Origin: Squalus acanthias
Taxonomy: Eukaryota
Reading direction: 5' to 3'
NCBI GenBank assembly: GCA_030390025.1
Contig: CM059430.1
Location: forward strand, 67,828,001-67,892,000
DNA length: 64,000 nucleotides
Shown: positions 35,801 to 64,000 of the stretch, in pieces
How the letters are laid out: each line of letters begins with the position of its first letter
How positions within the stretch are numbered: position 1 is the stretch's first letter
Notes under the pieces: model-generated
Database searches by the model: none
The model's input: only the letters and a program-made list of their open reading frames with translations
What the model was told of the DNA's origin: nothing
Program-made: the position numbers and the translations under genes

Positions 35801-35855
35801 ATGGCGGTGAGCTCCGCGCTTTTCTGCATATCTTTGGTGTGAGTTCTTTACAGAG
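35801..35855 (+). pseudogene. Signal-peptide exon with premature stop
   Basis: MAVSSALFCISLV*VLYR; TGA at 35840-35842; phase 1 donor ag|gtgtgt at 35855/6. Confidence 0.72.
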
Positions 35856-36068
35856 GTGTGTTTGTTTATCTTACCTCTCCATGCTTATCGAAAAAAGCTA
35901 ATGTAAACAAAATTCGTCATTTTTTGTGCACATTTCTTTCTTCCGTTTTTCACATTGTGCTATTAATGTGGTTAATTTTCTTGTTTTTTTATTTCTAAGT
36001 CATAATATTTGTTCTTTTTCTAAAGTATGCAAACTATTATGTCAGCATTCTTGTTTATTTCCTGATAG

Positions 36069-36373
36069 CCGCTGAAGTAACTTCGATCAAAGTGGATCAA
36101 TTCCCTAAATACATGGAGGTTGCCAGCGGTACAAATGTTTCCATGTTCTGCGCATTTTCAATATTTCAAGATGCTTCTGATATTTATTGGTGGAGACGGG
36201 GCGAGGAGAAGTTTGTGGAGCTAGACAGCAGAAAGCAATTTGATGTAAAAAAGGGAAGTGGGTCATTTAATGTCCTGCATGCGAGTGTCGCCGACTCCGG
36301 AATATGTTACTGTAAAGTAATACATCACAAAAATGAATTGGAGATGGAACTGCCTCGCAGCTTACTGTGTACG
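36069..36373 (+). pseudogene. Ig V-set exon with fused J-like G strand; frameshift near 36326-36337
   Basis: IKVDQFP...VSMFC...IYWWRRG...DSGICYCKV; the shifted frame gives IGDGTASQLTVY followed by donor g|gtgagt; exon length is out of phase 1-1 by one base. Confidence 0.9.
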
Positions 36374-38789
36374 GTGAGTGTCATTGTGCCGGGCACTGGG
36401 AGATTCTCAGCAGTGTGCGATATATGTAAAACTTAGTAGTGAGGGTAATTTGAACGTTGACAGTGGCTGGAAAACTGGTGATAGCAAATTCGTTTTACAC
36501 TTCTACCAATTTTCTTTTCCATTCAAACCATGTACAACGGCCCACCAATTCGCTAGCGCCCGGCATGCGCTACTGCACCCGTTTATTGTCCGCATGACAT
36601 TCCAAAGTGCTTTCCATCCATTGAGATCTTTTGGAAGTGCAGTTACAATTGTTATGGAGGCAAGATACTGAAATATTATAAATGTTTAATTCTTGCCTTG
36701 AAATTAAAAACTGGGATTAGATGGCCAAAATCCGTCTCACCAAAATAACGGTGCCAAAGAGCGACAATGGGATCAATTGTAACACCTCCTAGGTCAGGTA
36801 TTTTATGCTTAATTAAAGGCCAGTTACTGCACCCCAACAAGGTGCCTTCATTAAAAACTCAGCAGGTCAATGTCCTGCTACAATCGTGGTTATTGCACAC
36901 ACCAGGGCACATTTTGGCCCCACTGCTTGAAATTGCCAATCAAATATTTTCTGTACAGAATTGTCCAACTTCTGGAATTCGCTCTCCCAAAAGGATGTGG
37001 GACAATTGAAGCTTTCAAGATTGAAATGGATAGATTTTTGTTAGGTGGGGATATCAAGGGATATGGAATTAAGTGGAGAAATGGATTTGAGGTACAAATT
37101 AGCCATCATCTAATTGAATGGCGGAGCAGACTCGAGGGGCTAAATGGCCACCTCCAGTTCCTATGTCCGCGGTTTAGGCTCAGCACTTGCTTCCATTGAG
37201 AACTTTTTTGAGACTGCCAAACTCATTTCACAAAGGAGTCTTATAACCCATTGAGAGGGGAAGTGTTGGTCTTACCCTCAAAGCTGGATTCCACCCCAAG
37301 TCCTAGACCTTGCAGGAGTGTGTAGAAACCCAATGCCCCTGTTTGAACCTCTGTCTTACGCCAATTGGACTTTCTTTCATACACTCACATCCTGTAAAGT
37401 ACGGGCAGATTATCGCCGAAATTGCTATAAACGCCTGGCCTCCCGTGTTTGTAATTCATGATTTCCATTTACACTCTACCAATCCCAGACTGAAGTTACG
37501 GCAGGAGATTAAGTCAACACTTTCATCCTCCTCCTCCACGGAAATTCTACCGCCTTACATATTATGCCTAAACAGATCAGTGGTAAAGGAATGGAGGAAT
37601 TCTGAGCTTTGGTTGGGCAGTCAATACGGTGCTGCTGGGAATAAAGCCTAAAATAATTTTCCAAGTTAATAATGCCCCTGATTTAAAAGTTTGCTGTTAT
37701 TACAAATTCGGGAAAGTAAACATGTAAAGAAAATATGTTAAGCAGATTGTTTGTAATGAACTGACGAAATAATGCAAACATAATAAGGGACTCTACTTCC
37801 AGCTAAACAGTGACTGTAACTCTAGCGGACAAAGGTTCACATTATTAAAAGACGATTGGAGGACTGATATAAACTGAGATTTTGACAGATTATGCGTGGA
37901 ACTGCCGCCAACATCTTCTTCAGGCAAAACGTTTTCAACAGACCGAATAGACTTGGGGAAGGACAAAGCCTCTGGAATTATATAAGACATTCACTCTGAG
38001 TTAGGATATCCTATAGGTTTCCCTCATCTGTATGGATGTTGTGATCTGCACAGAGATACATCATTACCATTATAACCCTTTCATGACATGAAAAATATTC
38101 CAGTCCTCAGTTCGCGCTCTGGGGAAACTACATTTAGTGAAAGCTGCACGATCTGAAATCTCCACCAGACACTGAAATGCTGAGTCAGTATTTGTAATGC
38201 ACGAATATTAATCTTTAGATGTAACAGCATCCTGTCTGCAATCTGTGTAGACATCAGAGATATTTCGATATATTGGTAAGAATTCTTCTTCTCAATATTC
38301 ACCGTTTATATAAAATATGTTTGCAATATATGAAATAGCTAAAAAGCGAACAATTAAAAATTGTTTAAAAAATAAACACACAAAATGTTTAATACTCAAA
38401 AGATTATTAATGAATAATGAGAAGCGATTCCACTGTTCATGCATTCTGGGTTGCGCTCTCTCCGATATAGTCGGTCAGGAACCTTACTCGGGGTCACTGC
38501 TGCAAACCATAATCCCGCGCCAGGATCTGATACTCCATTCAGAACAGTGACCTGTGCCTCCCGCATGTTAGCAGCCCTGGGAGATTCACCCTCTTTGCGT
38601 ACCGTTTCCAATAAATCCCGTCATTTTGCTGTGCGCCTTAAAACAATTTATAAAATAAATGCAAACTCGAAGTTTAAACAACGGCAGCGATGATAACTGT
38701 TGTGACAGTAGGACTGTAACAGCATAACGAGAGTAGGCAAATTAGAATGTGCTCCTTTAAATTGAAATAAAACTTTTTTTCTCTTAAAG

Positions 38790-39077
38790 TTCCCCCAACC
38801 CCCTTGAAAATCGCTCCTGTTGAAGGGATGTCAGCGGCTTCTCTAAAACTTGATTATAAAACGGCTGCCTTTTACCCGGAGCATTTAGAAATCTCCTGGC
38901 GAAGAGATGGTGTCGAAATTGTGACCGGAATAGCAACTGTGAAAAACAGGAGCGCGGAGGGACTGTTTGAAGTTTCCAGCTCGTTGGAAGAAGCACAGAG
39001 CGGAGATGTTTATACATGTCTGGCATCTCATGTCGCTCTTCCGGTGCCCGCCAGTGTCAACTACACCGTTAAGCAAG
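38790..39077 (+). pseudogene. Ig C1-set exon, B-strand Cys replaced by Tyr
   Basis: VPPTPLKI...LKLDYKTAAFYPEHLEISWRRDG...GLFEVSSSL...YTCLASH; FYP, W and YTC..H hallmarks of C1; acceptor ctcttaaag, donor g|gtaata. Confidence 0.92.
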
Positions 39078-40374: not shown

Positions 40375-40488
40375 GTCACAGTTTCAGCATCCGGCTCCTC
40401 ATGATTGCTCGGTTTGTTCTGTGTTTTTTGATAATTCTTGCACTGACGGGAATTATTGTGGACCACGTAAAAATGACTTCCATTGCAG
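40375..40488 (+). pseudogene. Transmembrane exon with intramembrane Arg
   Basis: 114 nt, phase 1-1: GHSFSIRLLMIARFVLCFLIILALTGIIVDHVKMTSIA; acceptor ttgtag, donor cag|gtaaga. Not present in the supplied ORF track. Confidence 0.88.
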
Positions 40489-40599
40489 GTAAGAAAACAC
40501 TTTATCAATTCAGGAAATCACCTCTGAAGTATACACACAGATAGGATTGGTTTTATGGAGATGAGAAATGTATTTTGCCAGCTGTTTGTTTGTAAGCAG

Positions 40600-43500
40600 C
40601 TGCAGAGAGCAGCAGCTGATTAAAAAGAGCGGGATCCCGAGCACCAGTGATTTAAAACGAGCGGGGCAGAGAGCAGCAGCTGATACCAGACAAACGGAGG
40701 GAAAAACTCAAAAATTGACGTCATTATCCGTATAGAGTGAGAAGTGGCGGGAGCCGAGGAATCATAGATAATTGATTAATTTCTCATCTATCAAAGTATT
40801 AAGACCATAGTATACTTAAGGTAAACAAATAGATCTAACTTGGCAGGGGGGGTGGGATACGGAGTGAGCTATAGTAGGGGGTAAAGCACAGCCAAATATA
40901 AAGGAAAAAAAGAAGTCAAGCTGGCAGGCAGAGCAAATATGTAACGGCGCAAGGGGGTATGGCAAGGCTGGATGGCATTTATTTCAATTCAAGGAGTCTT
41001 GCGAGGACGGCAGATGCATTGAAGGTGTTGATGAACACATGGGAGTATGATATTGTTGCTATCACAGAGACAATGTTAAGGGAGGGGCAAAACTGGCAGC
41101 TCAATATTCCGGGGTATAGAATCTTCAGGCGAGACAGAGGGGGGTGTAAAAGAGGATGGGGTGTCGCAATATTAATCAAGGAGTCAGTTACTGCTGTAAG
41201 CAGGGATGATATCTTAGCAGGTTCCTCTAATGAGGCCATATGGGTAGAACTTATAAACAAAAAGGGGGCAAGCACTTTGCTGGGAGTTTACTATAGGCGC
41301 CCAAACAGTCAAGGGGAGATAGAGGAACAGATATGTAGGCAAATCGCAGAGATCGTAGAAATAATAGGGTAATAATAGTAGGGGATTACAACTTCCCCAA
41401 TATTAACTGGGATATTCAGAGTGTGAAAGGCTTAGAGGGTGCGGAATTCTTAAAATGCATCCAGGAGAGCTTTTTGAGCCAGCATGTAGAAAGTCCTACA
41501 AGAGAGGGGGCAGTACTGGACCTAATTCTAGGGAATGTAGCCAGACAAGTGGTAGAAGTGTCAGTAGGAGAGCATTTTGGTGACAGTGACCATAATTCGG
41601 TGAGATTTAAGGTACATATGGAAAAGGACAAAGATGGATCAGAAATAAAGGTTCTAAATTGGGGGAAGGGCGATTTTAATATGATAAGGCAAGGCCTGGC
41701 CAAAGTGGACTGGGATCAGCTACTTGTAGGAAAATCCACATCAGAGCAGTGGGAGTCTTTCAGAAAGGAAATAGAGAGAGTACAACCGCAACATGTTCCC
41801 GTCAAGGTCAAGTGTGGGACTAGCAAGCCCAGGGAACCCTGGATGTCAAGGGACATAGGAGAATGGATTAGGGAAAAAAGGGAGGCTTTTGGCAGATACA
41901 AAGGACTAAAAACAATGGAAGCCCTAGAGGAGTATAGAAAGTGCAGGGGGGTATTTAAAAAAGTGTTTAGGAGAGCGAAGAGGGGGTAACAAAAAATACA
42001 GGTGGGCAAAATAAAGGAAAATACCAAGGTGTTTTATAAGTATATTATAGGCAAGAGGATAACCAGGGAAAGAGTAGGGCCCATTAGGGACAAAAGTGGA
42101 AATCTGTGTGTAGAGCCAGAAGATGTGGTTGAGGTTTTAAATGAATATTTTGCATCTGTGCCCACTATGGAGAAGAACGATGTAGGCATAGAAATCAGGC
42201 AGGGGGTTTGTGATATACTTGAACAAATTAGTCTTGAGAGGGAGGAGGTACTAGCGATTTTACCGGGCTAAAAAATGGATAAATCACCAGGCCTAGACGA
42301 GATGTATCCCAGGCTGCTGTGTGAGGCAAGGGAGGAGATTGCAGGGGCACTGACACAAATTTTCAGAACCTCTCTGGAAACAGGTGAGGTGCCAGAGGAC
42401 TGGAGAACAGCTAATGTAGTATCATTATTCAAGAAGTGTAGTAGGGATAAACCAAGGAATTACAGGCCAGTGAGCCTAACATCAGTGGTAGGGAAATTAT
42501 TGGAAACAATTCTGAGGGACAGAATTAGTCTCCACTTGGAGAGGCAAGGATTAATCAGGAATAGTCAGCATGGCTTTGTCAGGGGGAGATCATGTCTGAC
42601 CAATTTGGTGGCTAGGTGTGTGGATGAGGGTAGTGCAGTTGATGTGATCTACATGGACTTCAGTAAGGCTTTTGATAAAGTCCCGCATGGGAGACTGGTC
42701 AAGAAGGTAAGAGCCCATGGGATCCAGGATCCAAAATTGGCTTAGAGGCAGGAGGCAGAGGGTGATGGTTGAAGGTTTTTTTTGTGACTGGAAGCCTGTG
42801 TCCAGTGGTGTACCGCAGGGACCGGTGCTGGGTCCTTTGCTGTTTGTAGTGTACATTAATGATTTAGATATGAATGTCGGAGGTATGATCAGTAAGTTCA
42901 CAGATGACACGAAAGTTGGTGGGGTGGTAAATAGCGAGGAGGGAAGCCTCAGGCTACAGGACGATATAGACGGGTTGGGCAGATAGGCAGAACAGTGGCA
43001 AATGGAATTTAACCCTGAAAAGTGTGATGTGATGCATTGTGGGAGGACTAACAATTCAAGGGAATACACAATGAATGGTAGGACCTTAGGAAGGACAGAG
43101 GGTCAGACGGACCTTGGTGTGCATGCACATAGATCCCTGAAGGCAGCAGGACAGGTAGATAAGGTGGTTAAAAAGGTATGTGGGATACTTGCCTTCATTA
43201 GCCGAGGCATAGAATATAAGAGCAGGGAGGTTATGATGAAGCTGTACAAAACGCTAGTTAGGCCACAGCTGGGATACTGTGTGCAGTTCTGGTCGCCACA
43301 CTATAGGAAGGATGTGATTGCATTGGAGAGGGTGTAGAGGAGATTCACCAGGATGTTACCTGGGCTGCAGCGCTTCAGCTATGAAGAGAGACTTGATAGG
43401 CTGGGGTTGTTTTCGTTAGAGCAGAGAAGGCTGAGGGGACCTCATTGAGGTTTACAAAACTATGAGAGGCATAGATATGTTAGAAGTAAGGAACGTTTCT

Positions 43501-43812
43501 CTTTAGTAGAGGGGTCAATAACCAGGGGGCATAATTTCAAGGTAAGGGGCAGGAGGTTTAGAGGGGCTTTTTGGAAAAACTTTTTCACCCAGAGGGTGGT
43601 TGGAATCTGGAACTCACTGCCTGAAAAGGTGGTAGAGGGAGGAACCCTCAAAACATTCAAGAAGCATTTAGATGAGCACTTGAAGCGCCATAGCATACAA
43701 GGCTACGGAACAAGTGCTGGAAAATAGGATTAGAATAGACAGGACTTGATGGCCGGCGCGGACACGATGGGCCGAAGGGCATCTTTCAGTGCTGTGTAAC
43801 TCTATGACTCTA
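40600..43812 (+). mobile_element. CR1 LINE with nearly complete ORF2 but no ORF1
   Basis: 5' UTR-like repeats and TGACGTCA at 40716, then YFNSRSL/IVAITET/GDSDHN endonuclease and RT (YMDFSKAFDKVPH, GVPQG, KFTDDTK) through to the 3' tail. Confidence 0.9.
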
Positions 43813-43814
43813 TA

Positions 43815-46800
43815 AAAGGGCGAGGTCGAGAGCGGCATGACAGAAAAATCGCAAAGTGATGATGTCAGAGCAGAAGGTAGGATGGCGGGGTAATTTACAG
43901 GTCAATATTTAATTTAATCTACCTCTAATTTAAATTAGATGAAGTAATTAGTTAAAAATAAAGAATATAAGCTAAGTTGATTAATTACATAAACTTTAAT
44001 TAATTAAATAATTTAAACAAGGTTATATCGGGATGGCAGCACGTATGTCACAACTGCATCATGTGGGAGTTTGTGGGAGCATCAGGATCCTGGACAACCG
44101 TATCTGCAGTTAGTGTCTGTATCTCGAGGAATTTCAGCTCAGACTTGCTAAGCTGGAGTCCGAGGTGCAGCCATTATGGGGCTTCAGGGAGGGGGAGAGT
44201 TACCTGGACACTTTGATCCAGGAGGCAGTCACACCCCTTAGGTTAGGTATTGGCAGAGGTCTGGTTCGTGTTAATGGACAGGAGGGTGTGACTGTGAGTC
44301 AGGCAAGGCAGGTGCATTGCTGGAGGAACCTCAGCCTTTGCTGTTATCCAACAGGTACTAGGTTCTTGCTGCCTCTATAGATTAAGGCAAATTCTGCAGG
44401 GTGGATAAACAAACTGACAACAGCACCGTGGTAAAGGAGGTCATTCAAGTGATGGGAGCGAAATAGAATGTGGTCGTTGTAGTGTACAATTTATTCAGGG
44501 GGATAGATACTGTTCTTTTTGGCCACAACCAGGAGTTCTGTGGGTTGTACTGCCTGCCCAGTCCCAGTGTTAAGGGTATCACCTCGCAGTTGGAGAAGAA
44601 CTTGCATTGGGAGGGGAAGGATCCAGTTCTCGTAGTCCACGTAGGAACCAACGACATAAGTAGAACTAGGCATGAGGTTCTGCTGAGGGAGTTTGAGGAG
44701 CTCGGGTCCCAATTAATAAGCAGAATCTTAAAGGGCTCTGGATTACTACCTGAGACAAGCGCAAATTAACATATGTTCAAACAGATGTGAGTAGAATGCC
44801 TGGCTGAAAGTGTGGTGTGAGGGACAGGGGTTACGATTCAGGGGGCACTGGCAGCAGTACTGGGGAAAGAGGGTGCTTTTCTGTTGGGACAGGCTCGACT
44901 TAGACCAGGCTGGGATCAATGTTCCAGTGAATCGAATAACTAGGGCTGTAGACAGGGCTTTCAACTAAAAAGTGGGGAGTGTGCAGGTGAGGGGAAATGT
45001 ATAAATCAATAGAGAAAAGTCAAGGCCATAGAGCAGTGTTGTGATTTAGGTAATGATAAGCAGAGTGTGGCTGAAAGGGACAGTAATAATACATCAGTGA
45101 ATAAGGTCAAATCAGGGAAAAATATTAAAACGTAAATGTTAAAGGTGCTTTATCTTAATGCATAAAGCATTCATAACAGAACAGACGAATTAATGGCATA
45201 AATAGAGATAAACAGGTTTGTTCTAATAGCCATTAGATAGCCGTTGTTGCATGGTGACCAAGGTTGGTAACTAAATATTCCAGGGTACTTGACGATTCGA
45301 AAAAGACAGACAAAATGGAAAAGGAGGGAATAGCCCTAATAATAAAGGATGACATAAGGCCAATAGTGAGAAAGGATCTTGGCGCAGAAAGTAGAATTAG
45401 TATGGGTGGAGAAATGAACAACAAGGGGCAGAAAGCACTGGTGGGGAGTAGTTTATAGCCACCTCCCCAACAGTAACTATACTGTTGGACAGACAATTAA
45501 TCATGAAATAAGAGGAACTTGTAACAAAGGTACTGCAATAATCGCGGGGGGCTTTAATCTTCATATAGACTGGACAAATCAAATTTATAAAAGTAGTTTG
45601 GAAAACGAGTTCAGGGAATCCATTTGAGACAGTTCCCTAGAACATTATGTCGTGGAACCAACCAGGAAACAGGTTAGTTTAGATATTTTCTTTTGTAATG
45701 AGGCAGGGTTCATTAGTAATTTCATAGTAAGGGAGCCACTGGGGAAGAGTGATCATAATATTATGGAATATCACGTTGTGTTCGAGAATAACATACTTAA
45801 GTCCGATACTGGAGTATAATTTTAAATAAAGCCAATTACATAGGTATGAGGGGCGAGTTGGCTCAGGTAGATTGGGAAATTAGATTAAAAGATAAGATGG
45901 TACATAAGCAATGGCGAACATTTAAAAATATTTCATACTTCTCAACAAATATAAATTCCATTGAGCAATAAGGGCTAGACAGACTGGATGCAGGGAGGAT
46001 GTTTCCCTGGCTGGGGGTGTCTAGAACGAGGGGTCAGAGTCTCAGGTTACGGGGTAGGACAATTAGGACTGAGATGAGGAGAAATTCTTTCTCTCAGAGG
46101 GTGGTGAACCTGTGGAATTCTCTACCACAGAAGGCTGCGGAGGCCAAGTCGCTGAATATATTTAAGAAGGAGATAGATAGATGTCTAGACACAAAACGCA
46201 TCAAGTGGTATGGGAAGAGAGCTGGAATATGGTATGGAGATAGAGGATCAGCCATGATCATATTGAATGGCGGAGCAGGCTCGAAGGGCCGAATGGACTA
46301 CTCCTGCTCCTATTTTTTTTCTATAAAACTCCAATGAACAGGTGACCCATCCGTGGCTAACTAAAGAGGTTAAGGATGGTATAGATTAAAAGAAAAGACT
46401 TACAATGTAGCCTAGAAGAGTACTAATCCCGAGCATTGGGAGACTTTTAAAAACCAGCAAAGGATGTCCAAAAATTAATAACGAGCGAAAATAGAATATG
46501 AGAGTAAAGTATCAAGAAATATATATATTTTTAAGAAATTCTAAAAGTATGTAAAAAGGAAGAGAGTGGTGAAAGTAAATGTGGGTCTCTTAGAGGCTAA
46601 GACAGGAGGAATTATAATGAGAAATAAGGAAATGGCAGAGACGTTAAACAAATATTTTGTAACTGCCTTCAGAAGAACCAAAACACATATCATAAACAGT
46701 GGCGAACCAAGTGTCTAATAAGAGTGAAGAACTTAAAGTAATTAATATTAGTAAAGAAAAAATATTGGAGAAATTAATGGGACTAAAAGCTGAAAAATGC

Positions 46801-48303
46801 TCTGGGCCTGATAGCCTACATCCTAGGGTACTAAAAGAGCTGGCTGCAGAAACAGTGGATGCATTGATTGTGATCTTCCAAAATTGGTAGATTCTGGAAT
46901 GGTCCCAGTGGATTGGAAGGTAGCAAATATAGCACCGCTATTCAAGAAAGGAGGCTGAAAAAAAACAGGGCACTACGGGCCAGTTAGCCTGATATCAGAC
47001 AGCGGGGAAATGCTGGAAACTATTATTAAGAAAGTGCTCACAGTACACATAGAAAATCATAGTATGATTAGACAGAGTCAACATGGCTTTGTGAAAGGGA
47101 GATCGTGTTTAACACATTTATTAGAGTATTTTGTGGATGTAACTCGCAGGGTAGATCAAGGAAAACCAGTGCAGGTAGTATATTTGGATTTACAAAAGGC
47201 ATTCGATAAGGTGCCACATGAAAGGTTGTTATACAAGATACAGGCAGATGGGGTTGCAGGGGGTGGGGGGTATTATATTAGCATGGATAGAGGATTGGTT
47301 AAAGGACAGAAAACAGAGAGTACGAATAAATAGGTCATTTTCAAGTTGTCAGGATATTACTAGTGGGTGCCACAAGGATCAGTGTTGGGGCCTCAGCTAT
47401 TTACAATCTATATTCATGACTTAGATGAAAGGACCGAGTGTAATGTATCCAAGTTTGCTGACATTAAAAGCTAGGTGGGAAAGTAAGTTGTGAGGCAGAC
47501 ACAAACAGTCTGCAAAGGAATATAGACGGGTTAAGTGAATGGGCAAGAAGGTGGCAGGTAGAGTATAATCTGGGGAATTGTGAGGTCATTCACTTTGGTA
47601 AGAAGAATAGAAAAACAGAATATTTTACGTGGTGATAAGTTATTAAATGCTGGTTTTCAGAGGGATATTGCTGTCGTTGTTCATGAAACACAGAACGTTA
47701 ACATGCAGGTACAGCAAGCAATTAGGAAGGCAAATGGTATGTTGACCTTTATTGCAAGGGAGTTGGAGTACTAAATTAAGGAAGTCGTGCTGAAATTGTA
47801 TAGCACTTTGGTGAGACCACTCATGGAGTACTGTGTACAGCTTTGGTCTCTGTATCTAAGGAATAATATACTTGCCTTAGAGAGGGTGCAACGAAGGTTC
47901 ACTAGATTGATTCCTGGGGTGATAGGTTTGTCCTATGAGGAGAGATTGAGTAGCATGGGACTAAACTCTCTGGAGTTTAGAAGAATGAGTGGTGATCTCA
48001 TTGAAACATATACTTTTCTGATAGGGTTTGACAGGGTAAATGCTGAGAGGCTGCTTTCCCTGGCTGGAGAGAAGAGGAGACATTTCTTCACTCAGGGAGT
48101 TGTGAATCTTTGGAATTCTCTACTGCAGAGTGCTGTGGATGCTGAGATCGATAGATATTTTGGACTCTAAGGGAATCAAGGGATATGGGGATCAGGTAGG
48201 TAAGTGACGTTGAGGTCGACGATCATCCAGGGTCTTATTGAATGGTGGCTCAGGCTACAGGGGACTATGGCCAATCCTGCTCATATTTCTTAGGTTCTTA
48301 TGA
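43815..48303 (+). mobile_element. Near full-length decayed CR1 (ORF1 esterase + ORF2) with nested CR1 3' fragment at 45971-46325
   Basis: YCLPSPSVK..VHVGTNDI (44470-44769); RT fragments 46699-48170; the inserted tail fragment interrupts the linker region. Confidence 0.88.
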
Positions 48304-48677
48304 AACATATTTTCATGCAACGAGTGGTTAGGATTTGGAATGCACTGCTTGATATGGAGGTGGATACAGTTTCAATAGGGAATTGGATAAATAATACTTA
48401 AAGAAGAATAAAATTGCAGGGTTATGAGGAACGAGCAGGGGAGTGGAGCTAACAGTATTGCTCTTCGAAAAAGCCAGCGCAGATTCGATGGGCTGAATGG
48501 CCTACTTCTGTGATGAACTAGTCAATGTTTCTATATAATTTAAGATTAACGATTGAAACGTTTTGCCACCAAATTGCTGACAACATTGAAAAACGATACT
48601 TTAATATTTTCATATTTAATTCCGTTCTTACAGGATAATTCAAATAGTAAACGCTGAACATCTGATGCAAGTTTGAG

Positions 48678-48880
48678 CCTTGGCACAGTGGTAGCTCCTC
48701 GCTTTGAGTCAGAACGTTGTGTGTTGATGTTGTCACTCCAGAGACTTGAGCTCAAAATCCACGCTTTTATTTCAGCACAGCACTGAGGGAGTCCCGTCTG
48801 CCCTCTCGGATGGACGTAAAACATCCCACGACACTATTTCGTAGAAGAGCATGGGAGTTCTCCACTGTGTCCTGGCAAAA
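48678..48880 (+). mobile_element. Deu-domain SINE (SacSINE1-like), partial
   Basis: tRNA-like head (ggcacagtggtagc) plus gtctgccctctcggatggacgtaaaacatcccacgacactatttc...gggagttctcc...gtcctggcaa. Confidence 0.6.
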
Positions 48881-48977
48881 TGGCCTACTCCTGCTCTTAT
48901 TTCTTCTGGAAGAACCAAGGGTATAGCGAGAATAAGGAACTGAAAAAAATTACTATTAGTAAATAAAGTAGTACTGG

Positions 48978-50745: not shown

Positions 50746-50747
50746 GT

Positions 50748-51812
50748 CGTAGGAAAAAACGGGTCATTTTCGGGTTGACAGGCTGTAACTAGTGGGGTAC
50801 CGAAAGGATCAGTGCTTGGGCCTCAGCTATTCAAAATCTAAATCAATAATTTGGATGAGTGGACCAAATGTAATATATCCAAGTTTGCTGATGATACAAA
50901 GCTGGTGGGAATGTAAGTTGTGAGGAGGATGCGAGGAGGCTTCAAGGGGATATAAACAGGCTAAGTGAGTGGCAGGAACATGGCAAATGGAATATATTGT
51001 GGAGAAATGTGAAGTTATCCACTTTGGTAGGAAAAATAGAAAAGCAGAGTATTTTTAAATGGTCAGAGATTGGTAAATGTTGGTGTTCAGAGGGAGCTGG
51101 GTGTCCTTGTACATTGATCACTGAAAGTTAACATGCAGGTACAGCAAGCACTTAGGAAAGTAAATGGTAAGTTGGTCTTTATTACAAGAGGATTTGAGTA
51201 TCAGAGTAAAGACGTCTTTCTGCAATTATATAGGGCTCTGGTGAGACCACATCTGGAATATTGTGTCATTTTTGATCTCCTTACCTAAGGAGGGATATAC
51301 CTGCCATAGAGGGAGTGCAATGAAGGTTCACCAGACTGGCTCCTGGGATGGGAGGATTGTCTATGAGGAGAGATCGAGTAGGCTAGGCCTATATTCTCTC
51401 GAGTTTAGAAGAATGAGAGGTGATATCATTGAAACATACAAAATTCTTACAGGGCTTGAAAGGGTACATGCAGGGAGGATGTTTCCCCTGGCTAGGGAGT
51501 CTAGAACCAGGTGTCAAAATCTCAGAATAAGGGGTCAGCCATTTAGGACTGAGATGAGGAGAAATTTCTTCACTCAGAAGGTGGTGAATCTTTGGAATTC
51601 TCTACCTCAGAGGGCTGTGGAGGGTCAGATGTTGATTACATTCAAGTTAGAGTTCGATAGATTTTTGAATATTAAGGGAATCAAGGGATATGGGGATGGG
51701 GCATGAAAGTGCAGATGAGGTAGAAGATCAGCCATGATCTTATTGAATGGCGGAGCAGGCTCGAAGGCCCAAATGGCGTTCTCCTGCTCTAATTTATTAT
51801 GGTCCTATGTTC
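50748..51812 (+). mobile_element. CR1 3' half (continues the fragment at 48908-48980)
   Basis: KFADDTK region through RRMRGDIIETYKIL and FFTQKVVNLWNSLP to the 3' tail. Confidence 0.88.
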
Positions 51813-52232
51813 CCGTGTGGGCATAGAGAGTGAGCACTGATAGACATCACATTGTCGATCCTGATCCCGTCCTCATTAGACTGGCAATTTCCAGCTGCGG
51901 CCCCTGGGTAACGGTCAGAAACAGGATATAATGCTAATTGCCCTCTTCCTCTCCCTGGGCACTCAGGCCAGTTTTAGCGTTTCAACTGCTGCCGGAAATG
52001 GGATCATTTAACACAACACAGATAGGCAATCCAACCTGGCAACTTCTGATTTGTATGGCTCGGTGCTATACCCACGGGTTACTTAAGGTGTGGATTTATT
52101 CAACGTGAAATGTAGTTATTATATGTGTGCAAGAGAGTATTGGACATCAGGTGAGTGCAGACGGCTCGAAGATTTTCATTCAGTTATTCATGTAACTAAC
52201 AGCCGTATTTTTGTTTCAATATCATTCTACAG

Positions 52233-52277
52233 TAAGTGAAGTGGAAACGATTCAGTGCGACATCTGTTATGATTTAG
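52233..52277 (+). other. Probable cytoplasmic exon of the IgSF gene (VSEVETIQCDICYDL)
   Basis: 45 nt, phase 1-1, acceptor tcattctacag, donor tag|gtaatc; lies in the first non-repetitive sequence after the repeat-filled intron. Confidence 0.55.
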
Positions 52278-53799
52278 GTAATCGGTTGTTAATTTTTATA
52301 TTAGATAATTCTAATATAGAAAAGATAAAGTGCACAATTACAAATACACAATAATCATGAGTGAAAGAGTATCGCCGAATGAAAGTTAAACAGAAATGTG
52401 AGATCCTGAGATGACGACATATTTATTTAAAATAGAGGAACGTTTATCTTTGTCCTAGAATGATTTAAAGTAAGATTATTTAGATAATTATTGTCGAATC
52501 ACAATGAAAGGATATAATTGAAGAGCGTTCCTTTAATGTATTAATATTTGGATATTTATGCAGTTGTGAGTGGGTCTGTGAGTCTATTTACATTGATGCT
52601 GACGTGCACTCAAAGGCACCGCGTGTGGATGGAAAATAAAAAAATAAACAAGGTAATTACATTATTTAAAAACACAGACACGATGGGCCGAATGGCCTCC
52701 TTCTGTGCCTTAAATTTCTATGATTCTATGATTCTGAATGTTGTTGTTAATGGCCAGGTAAAGAACTGCTGATAATCTCTGCCTCCGCTGCTCACAATTC
52801 CACGAGAGCAATAGGTTAGCCTTTGGGAAAGAATAGCGCGTGTCCAGGCACAGCTGGGAATTAAAAGCAGAAACATACGAAAGCAGGGAACGCGATGAAG
52901 GAGCCGCAATCGAAATGGATAAAGGGTGCCTGTAGCACTCGCTTACAGCCGGCTTCCGTTATACTTCGCTACACACTCTTTCTGTAACATTAGATTATAG
53001 AAAGGTAACTGCTAGTTGGCTCCTGTATATAATGAGCGTATTGCTTTCTATGTAAAGGCTATGTTAAGAAGGGGGAGAGGGTTGTAGCTGAGACTTCATG
53101 TTAGTATTTTTTGCGGCCTGACACGTATCTTGATGGGTGAATGTTTCCAGCTGACGAAATGTTTCAATAAATCTAAGTGCTGTCATTTATACGTGTCAAG
53201 TTGTATCGAGTGTGTAAACGTATCATATGTCTTATATTTTACTGAAGTAAAATTAAGAGACTTAGAGAGAACATTCTGGTCATAGAAAAAGAGACCCGTT
53301 GGAGGCCCAATAATACCTGACATTGATTTGTACTGAAAATCCACGATCAGAATTTATGTCATGGGCGAAACCAATTCAAAGGAAAGTTTGCTCTTTGAAG
53401 AGAAAGTTGGACACTGTGAATCTGGAATAGTTAAAAATACGCGATCACATGCGGAGATACATCGTATTCGGCATATCGACGGAAACAAATGGGTGGAGCG
53501 AAGCAGTAATTGTGATGAGAATAGTAAAATAATATTCGTCTTTCCTGGACTAAACTTGAGACGGTGCAACCATTTGAAACCAAAGACATCTTATTACACA
53601 AGGGCAATTTAAAGACACTAATAAATGATAACTAGCGAAACAGTTAATCACATTAACTAACTGCTAATTTACTTAGTATTGAGCTAAATCCACCTATTTA
53701 TTCAATCTAGACCTCAAGTGACCAAATAATGCAAGAAATAAATAACAGATAACCAACAAATAAATAAGCTAATTAATTAATTAATTAATTAAAACATTG

Positions 53800-56700
53800 C
53801 ATTACAGGCAGTGTGTCGGGATTTTAGTACGCAGAGCTTTGTGGACAAGGAGAATATCCCAGACTGCCACACTGAGGTGAGAGTGACTGCCCTTGATATC
53901 TAGGCAGCATTTGACCGAGTGTGGCATCAAGGAGCCCTAGGAAAATTGCAGTCAATGGGAATCAGGGGAAAACTTTCCATTGGCAGAAGTCATGCCTCGC
54001 ACAAAGGAAGATGGTTGTTGTTGTTGGAGGTCAATCATCACAGCCCCAGGACATCGCTGCAGGAGTTCCTCAGGGCATTCTACAAGGCCCAACCATCTTC
54101 AGCTTCTTCATAAATTACCTTCCTTCATCATAAAGTCAGAAGTGGGGACGTTCAGTGATGATTGCATAGTAATCAGTTCCATTGCAAATGCTCACGTAAT
54201 GAAACAGTCCGTGTCCGCATGCATGGGCATCATTCAGACGTGAGCTGATAAGTGGCAAGTAACATTCGTGCCACACAAGTTCCAGGCAAAGACTGTCTCC
54301 AACAAGAAAGCGTCTAACCAACCCCCGCCCTTGACGTTCAACAGCAATATTAGCACCGAATCCGCCACCATCAACATCCTGGGGGTCACAATTGACCCGA
54401 AACTCAACTGGACCAGCCACATCAATATGTAGCTACGAGAGCAGGTCAGAGGCTGAGTATTCTGTGGCGAGTGTCTCACCTCCTGTCTCCTCAAAGCCCT
54501 TCCGCCATCTACAAGGCACAAGTCAGGAGTTTGATGGAATACTCTCCACTTGCCTGCATGAGTGCAGTTCCAACAACACTTAACAAGCTCGGCACCATCC
54601 AGGACAAAGCATCCCGCTTGATTGTCAGCCCATCCACCACGTTTATCATTCACACCCTCCATCACCGGCGCAACATCACTGCAGTGTGTACCGTCCACAA
54701 GATGCATTGCAGCAACTCGCCAAGGCTTCTTCGACAGCACCTCCCAAACCCACGACCTCTACCGCCTAGAAGGACAGGAGCAGCAGGTGAATGGGAACAC
54801 CAGCACATGCAACTCCCCCTCCAAGTTACACACCATCCTGACTTGGAAATATAGTGCTGTTCCTTCATCGTCGCTGGGTCAAAATCCTGGAACTCCCTCC
54901 TAAACAGCCATGTGGGAGAACCTTCATCAGACGGAATGCAGCGGTTCAAGAAGGTCTCACATCACCACCTTCTCAAGGGCAATTAGAGATGTGTAATAAA
55001 TGCTGACCCTGCCAGCGACGCCCACATCTCAGAAACGAATAAACAAAATCCGGCTCAGAATCATTGAGCAGGAGTGTGAGCTAGAAACACTCCTACACAT
55101 AAGGGAGGAGGGGAAATTTCAGCATAATTTACGCCAGGATACAGTTACACACCAGAGGAAAGAATAGGTATAGGAAGGGGAGAGTGTGACTGTCAGTCAA
55201 CTGGATAAGAGCAACGTAGGAGAGTTAGTGAAGGAGGTCCATCAGAACAATCCAATACGTACAAGATAGTTGATACCTGTGAGCATAAGGTGAAAGAGTC
55301 ATTGGCACGTAATTTCCGATAGGAGACTTCCTGCGTGCGGCTGTCTCATATCGGGAAAAAATCTACGCCCTTACCTGAGGGCTCCCGAAGTCCAGAATCT
55401 TCCGCTCCTGGGCCTTTCCTGTTGCGCGCGCTCAGAGACCCAGGTATCCCAGGGGCGCAGGCGGTCCGCCAGCGTCCCTCTGACCACGTGGGCCAGTGAA
55501 TGGGGATCACAAAAAAAATCAAAACATTAAATGCATTTTTTTTTAAAAGCACGTTTTTAAAATGAGTTAATCTCACATTAAATTAAATATTTTAAACAAA
55601 AAATTATTTTTTTGAAAAAAATAATCAAAGTTTTTTCGGGGCTAAAAATAAACTGTTTTTAAATTATAAATGAATGAAATTTTTTAAAAATACTATTTAA
55701 AACTCATGCTCTCTGAAGAGCAATCCAGTCAGACCCATTCCCCTGCTCCATCCCCGTAGCCCTGCAGGTTTAATTCCCTCAAGTGCCTATCCCCGTCTAG
55801 CCTATACAAACCCTTCATTATCTTGTACACCTCTTTCAAATCAGCCCTCAACGTCCTTTGCTCTAATGAAAACAAATCCAGCTTCTCCAAACTGTCCTTG
55901 TAGCTAAGATCCCCCATTCCCGGAACCATTCTTGTAAATCTCCTCTGCACCCTCTCAAGGGCCTTCACATCCTTCCTAAAGTGTGGTTACCAGAACTGGA
56001 CGCAATACTCCAGTTGTGGCCTAACCAGCGCTTCATAAAGTTTCAGCATAACTTGTCTACTTTTGTACTCAATACCTCTATTTATGAAGCACAAGATCCA
56101 TCATGCTTTGTTAACCACTCTCTCAATATGTCCTGCCACCTTCAGGGAACTATGCACATTAACTCCCAGGTCCCTCTGTCCCTGGACACACTTTAAAACT
56201 GTGCAATTAACTGTATATTGCCTCTCCCTGCTCCTTCTGCCAAAATGCATCACTGCACACTTCTCTGTTTTAAATTCCATCTGCCACTTGAATGCCCAAT
56301 CTGCTAGCCTTTCTATGTCCTGTTGCAGTCGATTGGTATCATCATCACTGTTTGCCACACCAACAAGTTTGGGTGTCATCGGCAAATTTAGAAATTCTAC
56401 TCTGTATTCCAAAATCCAGGTAATTTATATGTATCAGGAAAATCAGTGGCCCCAGCACGGACCCTTGGGGAACAGCACTGTCTACCATCCTCCAGTCTGA
56501 AAAACAGCCATTTACCACAACTCGCTGTTTTCTGTCCTTAAGGCAATTCCTTATCCAAGCTGCCACTAACCCACCTATTAACCAGGCATCTATGTGGTAC
56601 TTTGCCAGACGCCTTCCGAAAATCCATGTAGACACCATCCATTGCATTCCATTCATCAATCCTCTCTTTTACTTTATCAAAAAATTCAATTAGATTAGTC

Positions 56701-59460
56701 AAACACGTTCTGCCTTTTACAAATCCGTGTTGGCTCTCCTTAATTATCTTAAACCTCTCCAAGACTGTGGGAAGGACCACCAGAATGCCAGCCAGGCCAC
56801 TATGGAGCAGAAGCTTCTCCAAGGGAGAAGATGCAGAGAAGAAAGGTTGATGTTATGGGGGATTCTATAATTAGGGGGATAGGCAGCATTCATTGCAGTC
56901 AGGAATCGAGATTCCTGAAGGGTATGTTGCCTACCCATAAGAGTAAGGGAAATCTCAAAATGGGTAGTAAATAATCTTGAAGAGTGGAAGAGGATCTCAT
57001 TGTTGTGCTCCATGTCGGAACCAACAACAGAGAATCATAGATATTTACGGTACAGAAGGAGGCTATTTCGACCATTGTGTCTGGGCCGGATGAAAAGGAG
57101 CTGTCCAAACTAATCCCACTTTCCAGCTCTTGGTCCGTAGCCTTGTAGGTTGCAGCACTTCAAGTGCATACCCAAGTACTTTTCAAATGTGATTAGGTTT
57201 TCTGCCTCACCACCCTTTCAAGCAGTGAGTTCCAGACCCCCACCACCCTCAGATTGAAAAGATTTCTCCTCAATTCCCTTGTAATCCATCGACCAATTAT
57301 TTTAAATCTATGCCTCCTGGTTATTGATCTCTCTGCTAAAGGAAATATATCTTTCCGATCCACTCTATTCCACTAGCCTCCTCATAATTGTATACACCTC
57401 AAACAAGTCTCCCATCACCCTCCTCTGTTCCAAAGAAAACAACAACAGCCTATCCAATCTCTCCACATCGATAAAATTCTCCAGTTCTGTCAACATCCTC
57501 ATAAATCCCTTCTGTACCCCCTCTAGAGCAATCATATCCTTCCTGTAATCTGGTGACCAGAACTGTGTGCAGTATTCTAGCTGTGGCCTTACTAGAGGTT
57601 TATACAGTTTAAGCATAACTTCCTGGCTCTTATATTCCATGCCTTGGCTAATAAATGAAAGATTAGGGGAAGGGTCCTGCTAAGAGAATATCAGGAGTTA
57701 GGAGCTAACTTGAAAAGCAGGACTTCACGGGTAATAATCTCAGGATTATTACGTGTAAGGTCCTGTTTTTCACGTTTTTTCGGATTATTACCGGAGCCAC
57801 GTGGAAATAGGTATCGAGACAAACAAATTAGGAAAGTCAATACTTAGCTATAGGAGTGGTGTGGGAAGGATGGGTTCCATTTCATGGGACGATGACACTA
57901 GTACTGGAGCAGGAAGGAGCTGTACCATTGGGACGGGCTGCACCTGAAACGGACTGGGACCAATGTCCTAGTGGAAAGTATAACTAGGACTTTAAATAAG
58001 ACTTCAAAATAATAACATGGAGGGGCGGGGTGGGGGGATTGCTACAAATTAGAGAAACCTAACAATAAAAGAATCAAGAAAAGAGAGTAGAGGACAAACT
58101 AAAGGAAGGAATAAGGATAACACGAATAGCCAGAGATCGGATAAATTCATAGACAATAATAGTAAAATAATTACTAAAATCAAAGAGAGAGGAATAATAC
58201 ATAAAAATAAATTAAACTGTTTGTACAGCAATCCATGTAGTATTCAAAACAAAATGGACGAACTGGAGGCAATAATTTGCAGAGAGGATCCGGATATAGT
58301 AGGGGTGACTGAAACATGGCTGGATAGAGAACAGGATTGTTAACTAAATATTGCAGGATATAACACACTTAAGAAGGAAAGGGAAGGAAAGGGAAGGAAG
58401 GGGGGAGGGGGAGTACCTGTTTTGGTTAAAGATAACATAATGGCAGTAGAAAATAGCTTGAAACTATCAGTAAGATAGATACAAAATCCCTATGATTTGA
58501 GTTCAAAGATAAAAAGGGATCCATCACCTTAATAGGGGTATACTATCTTCCTCAAATAGTGTAAAGGGAATTTGAGGAAGAAATATGTAGGAAAATCTAT
58601 GAGGTGAGTAGCAGAGATAGAATAATAATCATGGGATATTTCAACTACCCGAAATAAATTGGCAGGAAGAAGTAGCGAAACGAGAAAAGGGAATCGAGTT
58701 TTTACAATGTGTAAGAAGTCCAACAAGAAAATAATCACTACTGGATCTCGTAATGGGTAGTGAACCAGAACAGACAGAAGAAACAAGAGTCGGAGAACGT
58801 CTTAATAACCATTGATCACCACATAGATTTGGATCACGAGTTACTTACGTAGGTCAAAGACTAAGGTAATAGATTGGAAAAGAGCAAATTATGAGCAAAT
58901 GAGGGTTGAACTAAAGAAGGTAAAGTGGGAGAAAATTTTGAAAACAAAGCGCCAGAAAAACAATGGGAAATCTTTAAAAGGGTAATCAATAGAGTTCAAG
59001 AGAAATGCATTCCACTAAAAGCCAAAACAAGCAAGCTAATTATTGGGCACCATGAATGAATAAAGGACGACAGGGAACATTGTATCTAAAGAAAACAACA
59101 TATAAGTAATTAGATACTAAAGAAGAGGAGCAAAATTGGGTATATGCAAAATTTTGCAGCGTACATTTCATAGAGTCAGTCATAGAGTCATAACGGCACA
59201 GAAGGAGTCCTTACCGGCTCTCTGTAGAGCAATCCAGTCAGTTCCATTGCCCCGCTCTGTCCCCGTAGCCCTGCAAGTTTATTTCCCTCAAGTGCCTATC
59301 CAGTCTCCCTTTGAAAACATTGAGTGTCTCCGCTTCCACTGCTTCCATCGGCAGCGAATTCCACATCATCACCACTCGCTGCGTAAAAAAGTTTTCCCTC
59401 ACAGTCCCCCTGTATCTCTTGCCCAAAACCTTAAATCTGTGTCCCCTAATTGATGGTACA
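53800..59460 (+). mobile_element. Old CR1 5' half (ORF1 + endonuclease) fragmented by nested insertions
   Basis: ORF1 pieces at 53800-53871, 55049-55300, 56763-57032 and 57661-58010; ORF2 start ~58215. Inserts: family B 53872-55048 (+), MITE fragment 55303-55705, CR1 (-) at 55706-56762, 57033-57660 and 59168-59460. Confidence 0.78.
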
Positions 59461-60404: not shown

Positions 60405-61174
60405 GGGCCAGAAATTCGGCTTGCCGGCTTCCTGCGGGTACAAGCATTGCGCGCGTACTTGCCTACCACACCTGCAGTTGTGCTTTGGGCCCACGGGGAC
60501 TTCAGGTCCTGGGCCTCCTGCAGCTGCCGGCGCGCAGTGCTCGTGTATCCCAGGGGCACAATTAGTTCGAAGCGTCCCCTGGGATCAGCTGGGCCATGGA
60601 GAGCCAATTCTACCAGGGAATTTTCATAGATTTGACAGGAAGACCTGTCAAATCTATGAATAGAGATCGGCCCCAAAACCACACTTAAACTTCAAATAAA
60701 TTTAAAAATAAACATCACATTTTTAAAATAACTATAAGTTAAATTATCTACTTTAAACAAAAATTTAAATTTGTGAAAAAATTAATTATACTTTATAACG
60801 GTGCTAAAAATAAACTTACCTTTCTTTAAAGTATCTAAAGAAGATAACCCTGTTGAATTTTTTTTTCAATTGTAAATAACTAACCACTTAACTTGTTAAA
60901 AACATGCCTTGCGCCTCATTTTTAAAAACGCAGCTTCTTCATACTTACCTTCCCGGAGAAACCTGAAAAAAAACTGAAGTTCGCTGCGTGTGCGCAGCCC
61001 CTCCCGCGCGCGCTACCTCTCCCACACACACGTTCCACTTCTTAACCCCTCTCTTCAGGAGAACGGAAGTTCTGGTTTCCCGCGCATGCGCAGTGCATGC
61101 AGTAAACCGGCACTTCAGATGGCCTTACGGGTGAGTACACAGCGAGTACCCGATAACAGCCGAATTTCTGTCCC
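60405..61174. mobile_element. MITE with 17-bp TIR (Harbinger-like GGG termini)
   Basis: gggccagaaattcggct versus reverse complement gggacagaaattcggct (16/17); flanks AAT and AAA; related truncated copy at 55303-55705. Confidence 0.8.
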
Positions 61175-63517
61175 AAACCGAAACTATTTACTTGCAGCGA
61201 GGATTACCTTTACATTAAGCCACCAGCAAAACACTAATCTGCAAATCTACCTGGACGGAGAGAACCAAGATGTGCTCCCATTGGCATTCGAAGTTGGATA
61301 CTTTGTCAGCAAGTATCCACAGTCACCTTACATTTGCCGTGCATGTGTATTTGCTTCTGCGCATATGTCTGCGCATTTTCTTCTCAAGCATCTTGTGTGG
61401 ATAATCATAGACAGTGTATTATTTAAGGGTAATGCAAACATCTCGACGCTTCAGAACTGCCTGATATTCCTTCAATGTTGTGACGGAAAATATCTCTCCA
61501 CTTATTTCTGTCTGCCGTCCCCTTTATTATGATACTAATCTGCCGGTTGCATGATGTCTATGAGCAGGAATTCCGTATGGAAGTGCCTCTCCTGTGAAGT
61601 CACGAATGGGGATTTCTTGCCTCTGCTCAATGTCCCGATGTGATTGGAACGGGTCGGCTAGACGACACCTTAGAAATTCTTTGCAAATCGGCTCTTTCAT
61701 CACCTCAAACCCAATATACTATGATGTCAAACAGTTTGATAGGAACAACTTGAATGAGCAACATTCCTGACAAAATGGTTGCAATTATGGAGAAATTGAA
61801 TAAAAGGTGCTTTATTAGCCGAACTCACTTGCCATTTTGCAGAATATGCAAAACCTACAATTTGTGAGCTCATGTGACCAATGTTACAATATTGTAGGAC
61901 ATGAAGAACTTGCAATGCGTTTCAGAGATTTAACCAATTTAACTGTACTGAAATTTGCGTGGATATATAAAACAAAAATGAAGAAAATGTACTTAGTAAT
62001 ACACTTAGAAATATATATGAAAATTGAATGAATAAAAGAGGGATAAACGCCTTAAGGCGGGGCATTTACGCATTCCCATCGGTAGCGATAGTGAGCTTAG
62101 GAAAGTTACAAAGACTAATGTGAAGTAAAATCTACATTGAATGTGAACATTAAGTGTTCTTATAATTACACTGAAACATGCGATGTGAAATAACTGCTGC
62201 TATTCAACACTAGATACGTTTTCAGTATGTTGCAATTAACAGAGTTAAATTGAGAACAAGACGTGTTGGTGCTTCGAGTTGAGCAACTGAACCGCTTCCT
62301 TTACTTAGCTTGCATAAGCGATTCGCCCTTGTAAATATTTAGCAAAACATCAGTGTAGCGAAAAACAGAAGATAAAAACCCCAGCTAATCGCTTGTAGTT
62401 TATCAGAACTGATAGATCGCCCACACATTGACCTTTTAATTCCTGTATATAAATGTGCCACTGTTTCGGTTAATAAATTATCAAAATAATCTACTCCACG
62501 TTGTCTCCATTTGAAGATGGATTGTTATTAGATGAGAAAATCGAATTTGAAGTAAACTTTAACATAATAACTCGTAATCAGTTACACATCTACTTCCATT
62601 TTTCGGCCCCTGTCATTCGGGATAAAAATGCGACGTTCTTGTAGAAACCTGTGCTAATTAAGGCAAATCAGCACGGATTTCGAAAAGGCAAATCGTGCTT
62701 GAATTCCCTTCTAGAATTCTTTGAAGAAACAGCAGCGGGAATAGATAAAGGAAATGCAACAGATATCGTTTGCATTGATCTATTTTAAATGACAATTTGA
62801 CACCAGCAGATAATGAGTCTTGGAAGCAGAATACATGGGAACTTTCAAAACGGAAGTGGATATAAACGTGGAAAGAATAACATTGCAGGGATTTAGGGAA
62901 AGAGTGAAAGAGTGGGACTAATTGGTTAGATCTTTCAAAGTGCCAACACGGGCACAATTGGCAGCATGGTCTCCTTCTGTGCTTCTACTTGGCCACATGG
63001 GCAGACACATGTTTGGTGGATATAAAACAACTGGTAGCTACTTTTAGTACCTTGATGGACGAAACCATAGACTAGAGCTTCACCCGTTTCACATCAGGAA
63101 CGTCACCTGGTGTGGAAGCCAGAATGCAGTGACGCCACACATAAACCAACACACAGGTTTTGCAGTTTTACACGCAAAAAATGAGCACCAATCGTTGACT
63201 TGTAATTGATCGTATATAATCCATTTTTATTGAATTAATGATAATTAGGTACAGCAAGGATATTAGCGTATCATTCTAATCGAATGAGCACAGATTTGTC
63301 ATCAGTTAACTGATACCGATTTAACATCAAAGTATGTCAGGAAAGTTACTTTTACGAAAACAGTAAGTAATAACTATAGACTGTATTCTCTGATATATCA
63401 ATGGAATGCGTTACCTCTCGGAGGAATTATATCGCACGATATACATACGCGTGATATAGCAGAGAAATGCGATCAATACACACCAAAAAAGTGAAGTCCT
63501 TATCTAAAATTATATTG

Positions 63518-63688
63518 CTAATTGATTCTTACTTCTGCGTAGACAGCCTCTGTTACTCGTCTTTGTTTTTTTGTCCGCAGCTGGGCATATTCTGTCCTTT
63601 CATTATTTTTGCATCTCCCGGTTTTCTCTGAGCCAGTCAATGCTATAGTCGTGTACGTCAGCTTGTCACGCCCTGTCCCTTGTTCGGT
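63518..63688 (-). CDS. Terminal coding exon of an inhibitory immunoreceptor (ITIM/ITSM-like motifs)
   Basis: TEQGTGRDKLTYTTIALTGSEKTGRCKNNERTEYAQLRTKKQRRVTEAVYAEVRIN*; acceptor ggcttcacag; AATAAA on - at 63231-63226. Confidence 0.8.
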   Translation of the reverse strand, partial: TEQGTGRDKLTYTTIALTGSEKTGRCKNNERTEYAQLRTKKQRRVTEAVYAEVRIN

Positions 63689-63896
63689 CTGTGAAGCCAA
63701 TGTTTGGAAATATTGTTAATTGTTCATTTTGTAAGTTTTGTGGACTGCTGCTCAAAGCAGCCATCAGAAGGTCACACAAATAGGCATAGATACAACACAC
63801 GGTCAAAGTCAGCACAAACATATGCCCTCCACTATCGCATGAATGTTGATGTAACACCGGTGATCTATGTTTCTCTGATCTGTTACTCAGTCCTAC

Positions 63897-64000
63897 CTCA
63901 GCGTATACGGTTCTCTCCTCTTCACGTTTATATCTTGGTGTTTTCCTGGCTCTGCTCAAATTTAGTGCAGCATAATGCATGAACTCAGCCGCTGCTCCCT
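63897..64000 (-). CDS. Penultimate cytoplasmic exon of the inhibitory receptor (runs off the window)
   Basis: GAAAEFMHYAALNLSRARKTPRYKREEERTVYAE(V); phase 0 donor gag|gtagga is compatible with the terminal exon; the exact donor is uncertain. Confidence 0.72.

Follow-up and report, generated by a model that had tools for sequence, protein, structure and literature searches.

A cluster of non-rearranging VJ-C1 receptor genes, probably paired, marked by two facing genes of Squalus acanthias

Introduction

Several described receptor systems resemble the one reported here. The SIRP family has a J-like V and C1-set ectodomain and occurs in paired inhibitory and activating forms (PMC2785349, PMC12975943). 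The NITRs of teleosts and holosteans are encoded by clustered non-rearranging VJ exons, comprise activating and inhibitory forms and are predicted to be natural killer (NK) receptors; the available text of the same source cites no evidence of NITRs in cartilaginous fish (bioRxiv 2021.06.11.448072). NKp30 (NCR3) is built from a VJ exon, carries an Arg in the top half of its transmembrane (TM) helix and couples to zeta/gamma (PMC13107469). Among elasmobranch non-rearranging VJ-C1 genes, UrIg has been named in sharks (PMC10751288, PMC12227049), and UrIg2 is a protein of ten Ig domains that dimerises in an Fc-like manner (PMC12227049). In KLRC, Ly49 and PIR, ligand-binding exons are homogenised between receptors of opposing function while the signalling parts stay distinct, a pattern called merohomogenization (PMC3210942). 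Here we analyse a window of 64,000 nt of the Squalus acanthias genome (CM059430.1, 67,828,001-67,892,000), in which the region 35801-64000 contains a plus-strand gene with an Arg in its TM helix (the Arg gene) and the end of a minus-strand gene whose tail carries immunoreceptor tyrosine-based inhibitory motifs (the ITIM gene).

The locus marks a large, apparently unnamed family of VJ-C1 receptors that are probably paired. The intact ITIM gene and the broken Arg gene come from about 120 clustered, non-rearranging VJ-C1-TM genes, which are likely paired immune receptors. A literature search, whose coverage left subscription journals and bioRxiv supplements outside, returned no description of this family or of any large paired Ig-type receptor family in cartilaginous fish, and the available parts of PMC11599192, PMC13262535, PMC3964593 (with one supplement), PMC6795676, PMC7677710 and PMC7916673 do not mention it. 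An earlier mention is quite possible, if short of likely.

Results and Discussion

Size and composition of the cluster

Genome searches returned 111, 131 and 150 matches (lower bounds), with the V matches lying nearly all on contig C6 at 57.5-76.9 Mb. The chondrichthyan receptor cluster suspected from the window is indeed present: at least 122 V loci with two tail classes extend across 19 Mb and include both window genes. For this analysis, 10-kb stretches were taken at 111 V positions, at 8 orphan C1 positions and at one locus on C3468, together with 200 kb adjoining the window. Copies on C3675 fell outside the 10-kb set, the frameshifted V exon of the window was excluded from the counts, and the exon filter can clip the start of a V exon.

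Of the 122 V loci, 77 have a V exon that is open and flanked by splice sites, and 64 have intact V and C1 exons; a TM exon was found at 55 of these 64. The G strand lies inside the V exon and is followed by a phase-1 donor; 73 of the 77 open V exons end in GxG[T/S], and FGxG/WGxG occurs in one. The C1-domain hallmarks listed in PMC2785349 are widespread among the 92 C exons (FYP-type, 85; Cys-13-Trp, 90; CxVxH, 81).

The 90 distinct TM exons include 31 with ITIM tails, 16 of a class designated Arg-DH and 5 of a second Arg class. The Arg-DH exons have an Arg near the outer end of the helix and Asp/Glu/Asn-His/Tyr 17 residues later (15 of 16, the remaining one being truncated). Intact V and C1 exons accompany nine Arg-DH genes and four genes of the second class, and three Arg genes (L057, L059 and L060) are complete and open. 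Thus, intact Arg-TM paralogs, the existence of which the sequence-only reading had left to be established, are present in the genome.

The second Arg class (L150, L154, L156, L159 and L161) is independent, and it resembles the neutral TM of a neighbouring ITIM subfamily. Gene L114 (C6:73204446) combines a TM Arg (LRLG) with an ITIM exon and is a possible dual-signal receptor; its V and C1 exons fail the intactness filter, and similar TM exons occur in L164, L165, L167 and L168. At C6 62.0-62.7 Mb, the TM exons of seven loci (L066, L075, L076, L083, L084, L086 and L087) combine an Arg at the outer edge with an Asp within the helix, and the tail exons are degenerate. Tandem C1 duplications are few (L062 and P0031), the one at L062:4141-6971 having copied part of the V exon, the intron and the C1 exon inside an ITIM gene. 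A retrovirus-like remnant, to which Pfam assigns integrase and env, lies within the cluster (L040:1723-3963, C6 ~67.98 Mb), and L051, an outlying family member, has an IBR-domain open frame ~24 kb away (L192:4756-5439, minus strand).

Probable exchange of ectodomains between the Arg and ITIM classes

Comparison of TM and ectodomain trees shows that one old Arg...Asp-His TM module has been joined to the ectodomains of several subfamilies. A single branch (96% bootstrap, SH-aLRT 79) separates all 16 Arg-DH TM exons from the others, and the motif is also found in the chimaera protein P0018. The nine intact Arg-DH ectodomains, in contrast to a single clade, which was rejected (p-AU 1.2e-6, 32 genes), are scattered, requiring 6 changes for 9 genes, or 11 changes for 15 rows when other species are included (P0039 left out).

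Individual pairs consist of near-identical ectodomains attached either to an ITIM tail or to a charged TM with a short tail, as is general in paired receptors. The V exons of L113 (Arg) and L131 (ITIM) differ at 1 of 312 nt. Further Arg/ITIM pairs are L057 with the gene at C6:67942836 (93/96%, the alignment ending 13 bp past C1), L095 with L136 (94/92%) and L150 with L142 (89/90%); in the first three of these four pairs the ectodomain matches its ITIM partner at 91-100%. In the subfamily of the window Arg gene, Arg and ITIM ectodomains match at 86-94% within the genome and at 68-81% to other species. Thus, ectodomains have likely been copied repeatedly between the Arg and ITIM classes, presumably activating and inhibitory, respectively. 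Gene conversion or unequal crossover is the probable route, and pathogen pressure may be the cause. The pattern recalls the merohomogenization of KLRC, Ly49 and PIR; the ectodomains are unrelated, however, and here it extends to at least four subfamilies, with an Arg module common to chimaera (P0018).

Several observations weigh against the interpretation of the cluster as a working set of exchanging paired receptors. The TM tree comprises 110 columns and its SH-aLRT value is slightly below the bar. In a second subfamily the contrast between species is less marked (93% within the genome, 78-83% across species), and the pooled dN/dS of 28 pairs (V 0.62, C1 0.57) reveals no faster change in V. 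No ITIM cassette was found in 21 of 21 Arg genes within the limited span of 0.8-12 kb examined in each. In addition, 38 of the 90 TM exons are without a class, often having short downstream sequence, and 58 of the 122 loci fail the V+C1 filter, so that part of the cluster is debris. Likeness to B7-type ligands, considered below, tells in the same direction.

The two genes of the window

The V and C1 exons, the TM Arg and the lack of ITIMs that had been read from the plus strand were all confirmed (Table 1). The Arg gene is nevertheless a pseudogene, with a stop in the leader, a frameshift in V and the loss of a C1 Cys. Its V exon has 305 nt instead of the expected 306, so that the G strand is read in the wrong frame, and its C1 exon is 9 nt shorter than those of paralogs, while the terminal exon is 94-95% identical to its counterparts in L057, L059 and L060. 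Since there are several independent lesions of differing kinds, an assembly error is unlikely to account for them. An exon candidate near 52233 was rejected as the terminal exon, homologous tails mapping to 52758. The long last intron consists mostly of repeats (40836-43814 and 44400-59400); the insertion 40836-43814 is absent from paralogs L057, L059 and L068.

Table 1. Features of the two facing genes (positions above 64000 continue the window numbering past its end)
Feature	Position	Strand	Remarks
Arg gene, leader exon	35801-35855	+	premature TGA at 35840-35842; GGA in 5/5 aligned paralog leaders
Arg gene, VJ exon	36069-36373	+	germline-joined; Pfam V-set; 1-nt deletion near 36326, frameshift ahead of J-like G strand
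Arg gene, C1 exon	38790-39077	+	Pfam C1-set; TAT replaces first Cys codon (B strand) at 38855
Arg gene, TM exon	40375-40488	+	Arg codon 40410-40412 near outer end; Asp-His 17 residues on
Arg gene, terminal exon	52758-52819	+	short tail without Tyr; located with tails of RefSeq relatives
ITIM gene, terminal exon	63518-63688	-	LTYTTI, TEYAQL, AVYAEV, stop
ITIM gene, second cytoplasmic exon	63897-63998	-	MHYAAL ... TVYAE; phase-0 donor GTAGGA
ITIM gene, first cytoplasmic exon (cyt1)	64587-64544	-	adjoining sequence
ITIM gene, TM exon	65402-65289	-	adjoining sequence
ITIM gene, C1 exon	66817-66512	-	adjoining sequence
ITIM gene, V exon	68177-67857	-	adjoining sequence
ITIM gene, leader exon	68389-68347	-	adjoining sequence

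The ITIM gene is described by a seven-exon model with AG/GT borders, open over 366 aa, in the order leader, VJ, C1, uncharged TM and tail. All five tyrosine motifs reported on the minus strand were found at their positions (63980, 63911, 63661, 63595 and 63547), with one correction: the V of the proposed TVYAE(V) is intronic, since the GTAGGA donor follows TVYAE. The spliced tail contains MHYAAL, which is outside the ITIM consensus, TVYAET (TVYAQN in the RefSeq relative P0012), LTYTTI, TEYAQL and AVYAEV. ITIM-like pairs are common by chance, eight being present in the six frames of the window; the motifs of the ITIM gene stand above chance because they lie inside exons with AG/GT borders and because such cassettes recur in 29 paralog tails.

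The adjoining sequence provides the ITIM gene with the V and C1 exons sought there, and its ectodomain is related to that of the Arg gene, the identity being only 44% in V and 48% in C1. The proposal that the two are sister members of one paired-receptor family therefore stands as regards paralogy, while the sequences place them as distant paralogs in different subfamilies and not as a matched pair. A close ITIM relative of the Arg gene is located ~51 kb past the window end at C6:67942836 (V 74%, C1 81%; 87% nucleotide identity over 3.6 kb) and has three Tyr cassettes. Upstream of the ITIM gene lies a decayed orphan C1 exon (L032, window-counted 72434-72709, minus strand).

The tail-to-tail orientation was confirmed, the stops being ~10.7 kb apart. 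Facing orientation and common family membership would fit a functional layout, that is, one co-regulated activating/inhibitory pair. However, the Arg gene carries its several lesions, its partner belongs to another subfamily, gene orientations are mixed throughout the cluster and the gap between the facing genes is mostly repeats. A functional tail-to-tail pair is therefore largely refuted in this assembly, and we regard it as scarcely credible.

Relation to known families

In domain trees with SIRP, NKp30-like, B7H6-like and TCR sequences, the C1 domains of the family form a clade of their own (99), apart from SIRP, Ig and B7H6-like C1, and the V domains group with B7H6-like V, with a 98/99 split from SIRP, NKp30-like, TCR-gamma-like and IgNAR V.

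The family could represent shark SIRPs in which V-C1-C1 has become V-C1. SIRP-alpha/beta-like is the commonest RefSeq name of its relatives, SIRP-alpha (2wng) ranks high among PDB matches of the full profile (E 1e-26), and both share the J-like V (73/77) and true C1-set (81-90/92 per hallmark). The multi-Tyr tail also resembles that of SIRP-alpha in spacing; its alignment with the bat SIRP-alpha tail scored 64, a value reached by 0 of 2000 shuffles, although shared motifs can converge. However, the gene models contain a single C1 versus two in SIRP, the outer Arg is unlike the DAP12-type coupling of SIRP, and neither C1 nor V groups with SIRP in the trees, for which the outgroup was two SIRP proteins with short domains. 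In a stringent initial search, TCR-like, NKp30-like and Ig-like loci were better matches to bat SIRP-alpha than C6, which was reached only at E ~8e-4. The SEP (NSFL1C-type) and syntaphilin families are on C8/C11, not on C6, and the NSFL1C/SNPH region is what we take to be the SIRP neighbourhood. Some 120 loci are present here, and the available text of PMC13262535 places SIRP under Tetrapoda. We thus consider a SIRP identity unlikely.

The family might instead derive from B7/B7H6-type ligands, its members acting mainly as counter-receptors with reverse signalling. The V grouping with B7H6-like domains (a label of our own), the recurrent PDB match to PD-L1 (E ~1e-6 to 1e-8) and RefSeq names such as NCR3LG1-like or CD276-like for some relatives agree with this, and some members could be ligands. 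Against it, the V tree is unsure, with long branches and few outgroups; the J-like GxG of 73/77 V exons is absent from the B7H6-like outgroups, as from B7 V domains generally; and ITIM cassettes are conserved and an Arg module is present. RAG1 is on C10 and UEV (TSG101-type) genes are on C10/C8; we presume both to be markers of the B7H6 region. A B7 derivation is very improbable. C6 was rejected as the RAG1 chromosome. WT1 and FTO are on small contigs, an opioid search gave one weak match, and Pfam scans of 254 unique ORFs of the flanks and window yielded no useful synteny marker.

The remaining systems differ in layout. In NITRs the membrane-proximal domain is of the I type with a J-like end (bioRxiv 2021.06.11.448072), whereas here it is C1-set by Pfam and motifs. 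In rearranging Ig and TCR genes V is split from J, whereas here the G strand lies within the V exon. NKp30 is not known to have a C1 domain. The 16 Arg-DH exons share its Arg in the outer TM half, while the presence of C1 sets the shark family apart from its single VJ ectodomain. UrIg2 is among the top PDB matches when C1 scores of the profiles are summed; in place of its ten Ig domains, one V and one C1 are combined here with ITIM or Arg modules. The family would thus appear to work like SIRP or NITR, but membership in either is not supported by these tests.

A separate cluster of VJ exons at C26:13.5-17.1 Mb (L203, L204, L207 and L208) has NKp30 as its best non-antibody PDB match and is likely an expanded shark NKp30-like cluster; its genes form a different clade from the C6 family. 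The V exon at L200 (C8:145.15 Mb) stops at the second Cys and lacks a G strand, features that we take to be TCR-gamma-like.

Proposed mechanism

CD89, TCR-alpha and presumably NKp30/NKp46 are linked to gamma/zeta dimers by an Arg close to the top of the TM helix (PMC13107469), and two zeta/gamma-family TM exons were found in the genome. Of the adaptors suggested for the charged TM, FcR-gamma/CD3-zeta is accordingly favoured over DAP12 because of the position of the Arg: Arg members may couple to FcR-gamma or CD3-zeta and would signal activation, DAP12 being less likely. SIRP-alpha recruits SHP-1/2 (PMC12975943), and ITIM members may likewise recruit SHP-1/2 to cause inhibition. Family members are probably expressed in leukocytes. 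The ligands of the inhibitory members would most likely be broadly expressed self proteins, and the activating twins may counter pathogen mimics. Of the ITIM gene, three read sets of the same species label, presumably RNA, matched little beyond repeat pieces.

Cartilaginous fish may, in addition, have in this family their main variable set of NK/myeloid receptors, functionally equivalent to KIR, Ly49 and NITR and reading MHC class I; antigen receptors may have arisen from a non-rearranging VJ-C1 gene whose Arg bound zeta/gamma, with the family as the living, expanded offshoot of that gene. We judge this combined proposal improbable.

Taxonomic range and implications

By name, 82 of 83 full-profile matches are cartilaginous-fish proteins, the remaining one being teleost (E 3e-9). 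The taxa comprise chimaera, sevengill, horn, cat, hound, basking, white, bamboo and zebra sharks, sawfish and rays. Twenty of the best 150 representatives were examined, and the bony-vertebrate ones among them are multi-domain (bat SIRP-alpha and B7H6-like repeats); bony fish may have members of the family. The AlphaFold model of P0012 (pLDDT 70) contains V, C, one TM helix and a disordered tail; its matches to antibody light chains are generic, as are Atlas matches to V-C1 clusters.

Automatic names are inconsistent, and the family accounts for RefSeq genes scattered under SIRP, tapasin-related, Ig lambda, NCR3LG1 (B7H6), CD276, MHC and TCR labels. Its named genes are candidate NK or myeloid receptors of sharks, and its matched gene pairs are suited to direct tests. 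The homogenisation of ectodomains would be seen here in the oldest jawed lineage, and the layout of the family is the plain VJ-C1-TM form that has been proposed for the precursor of antigen receptors.

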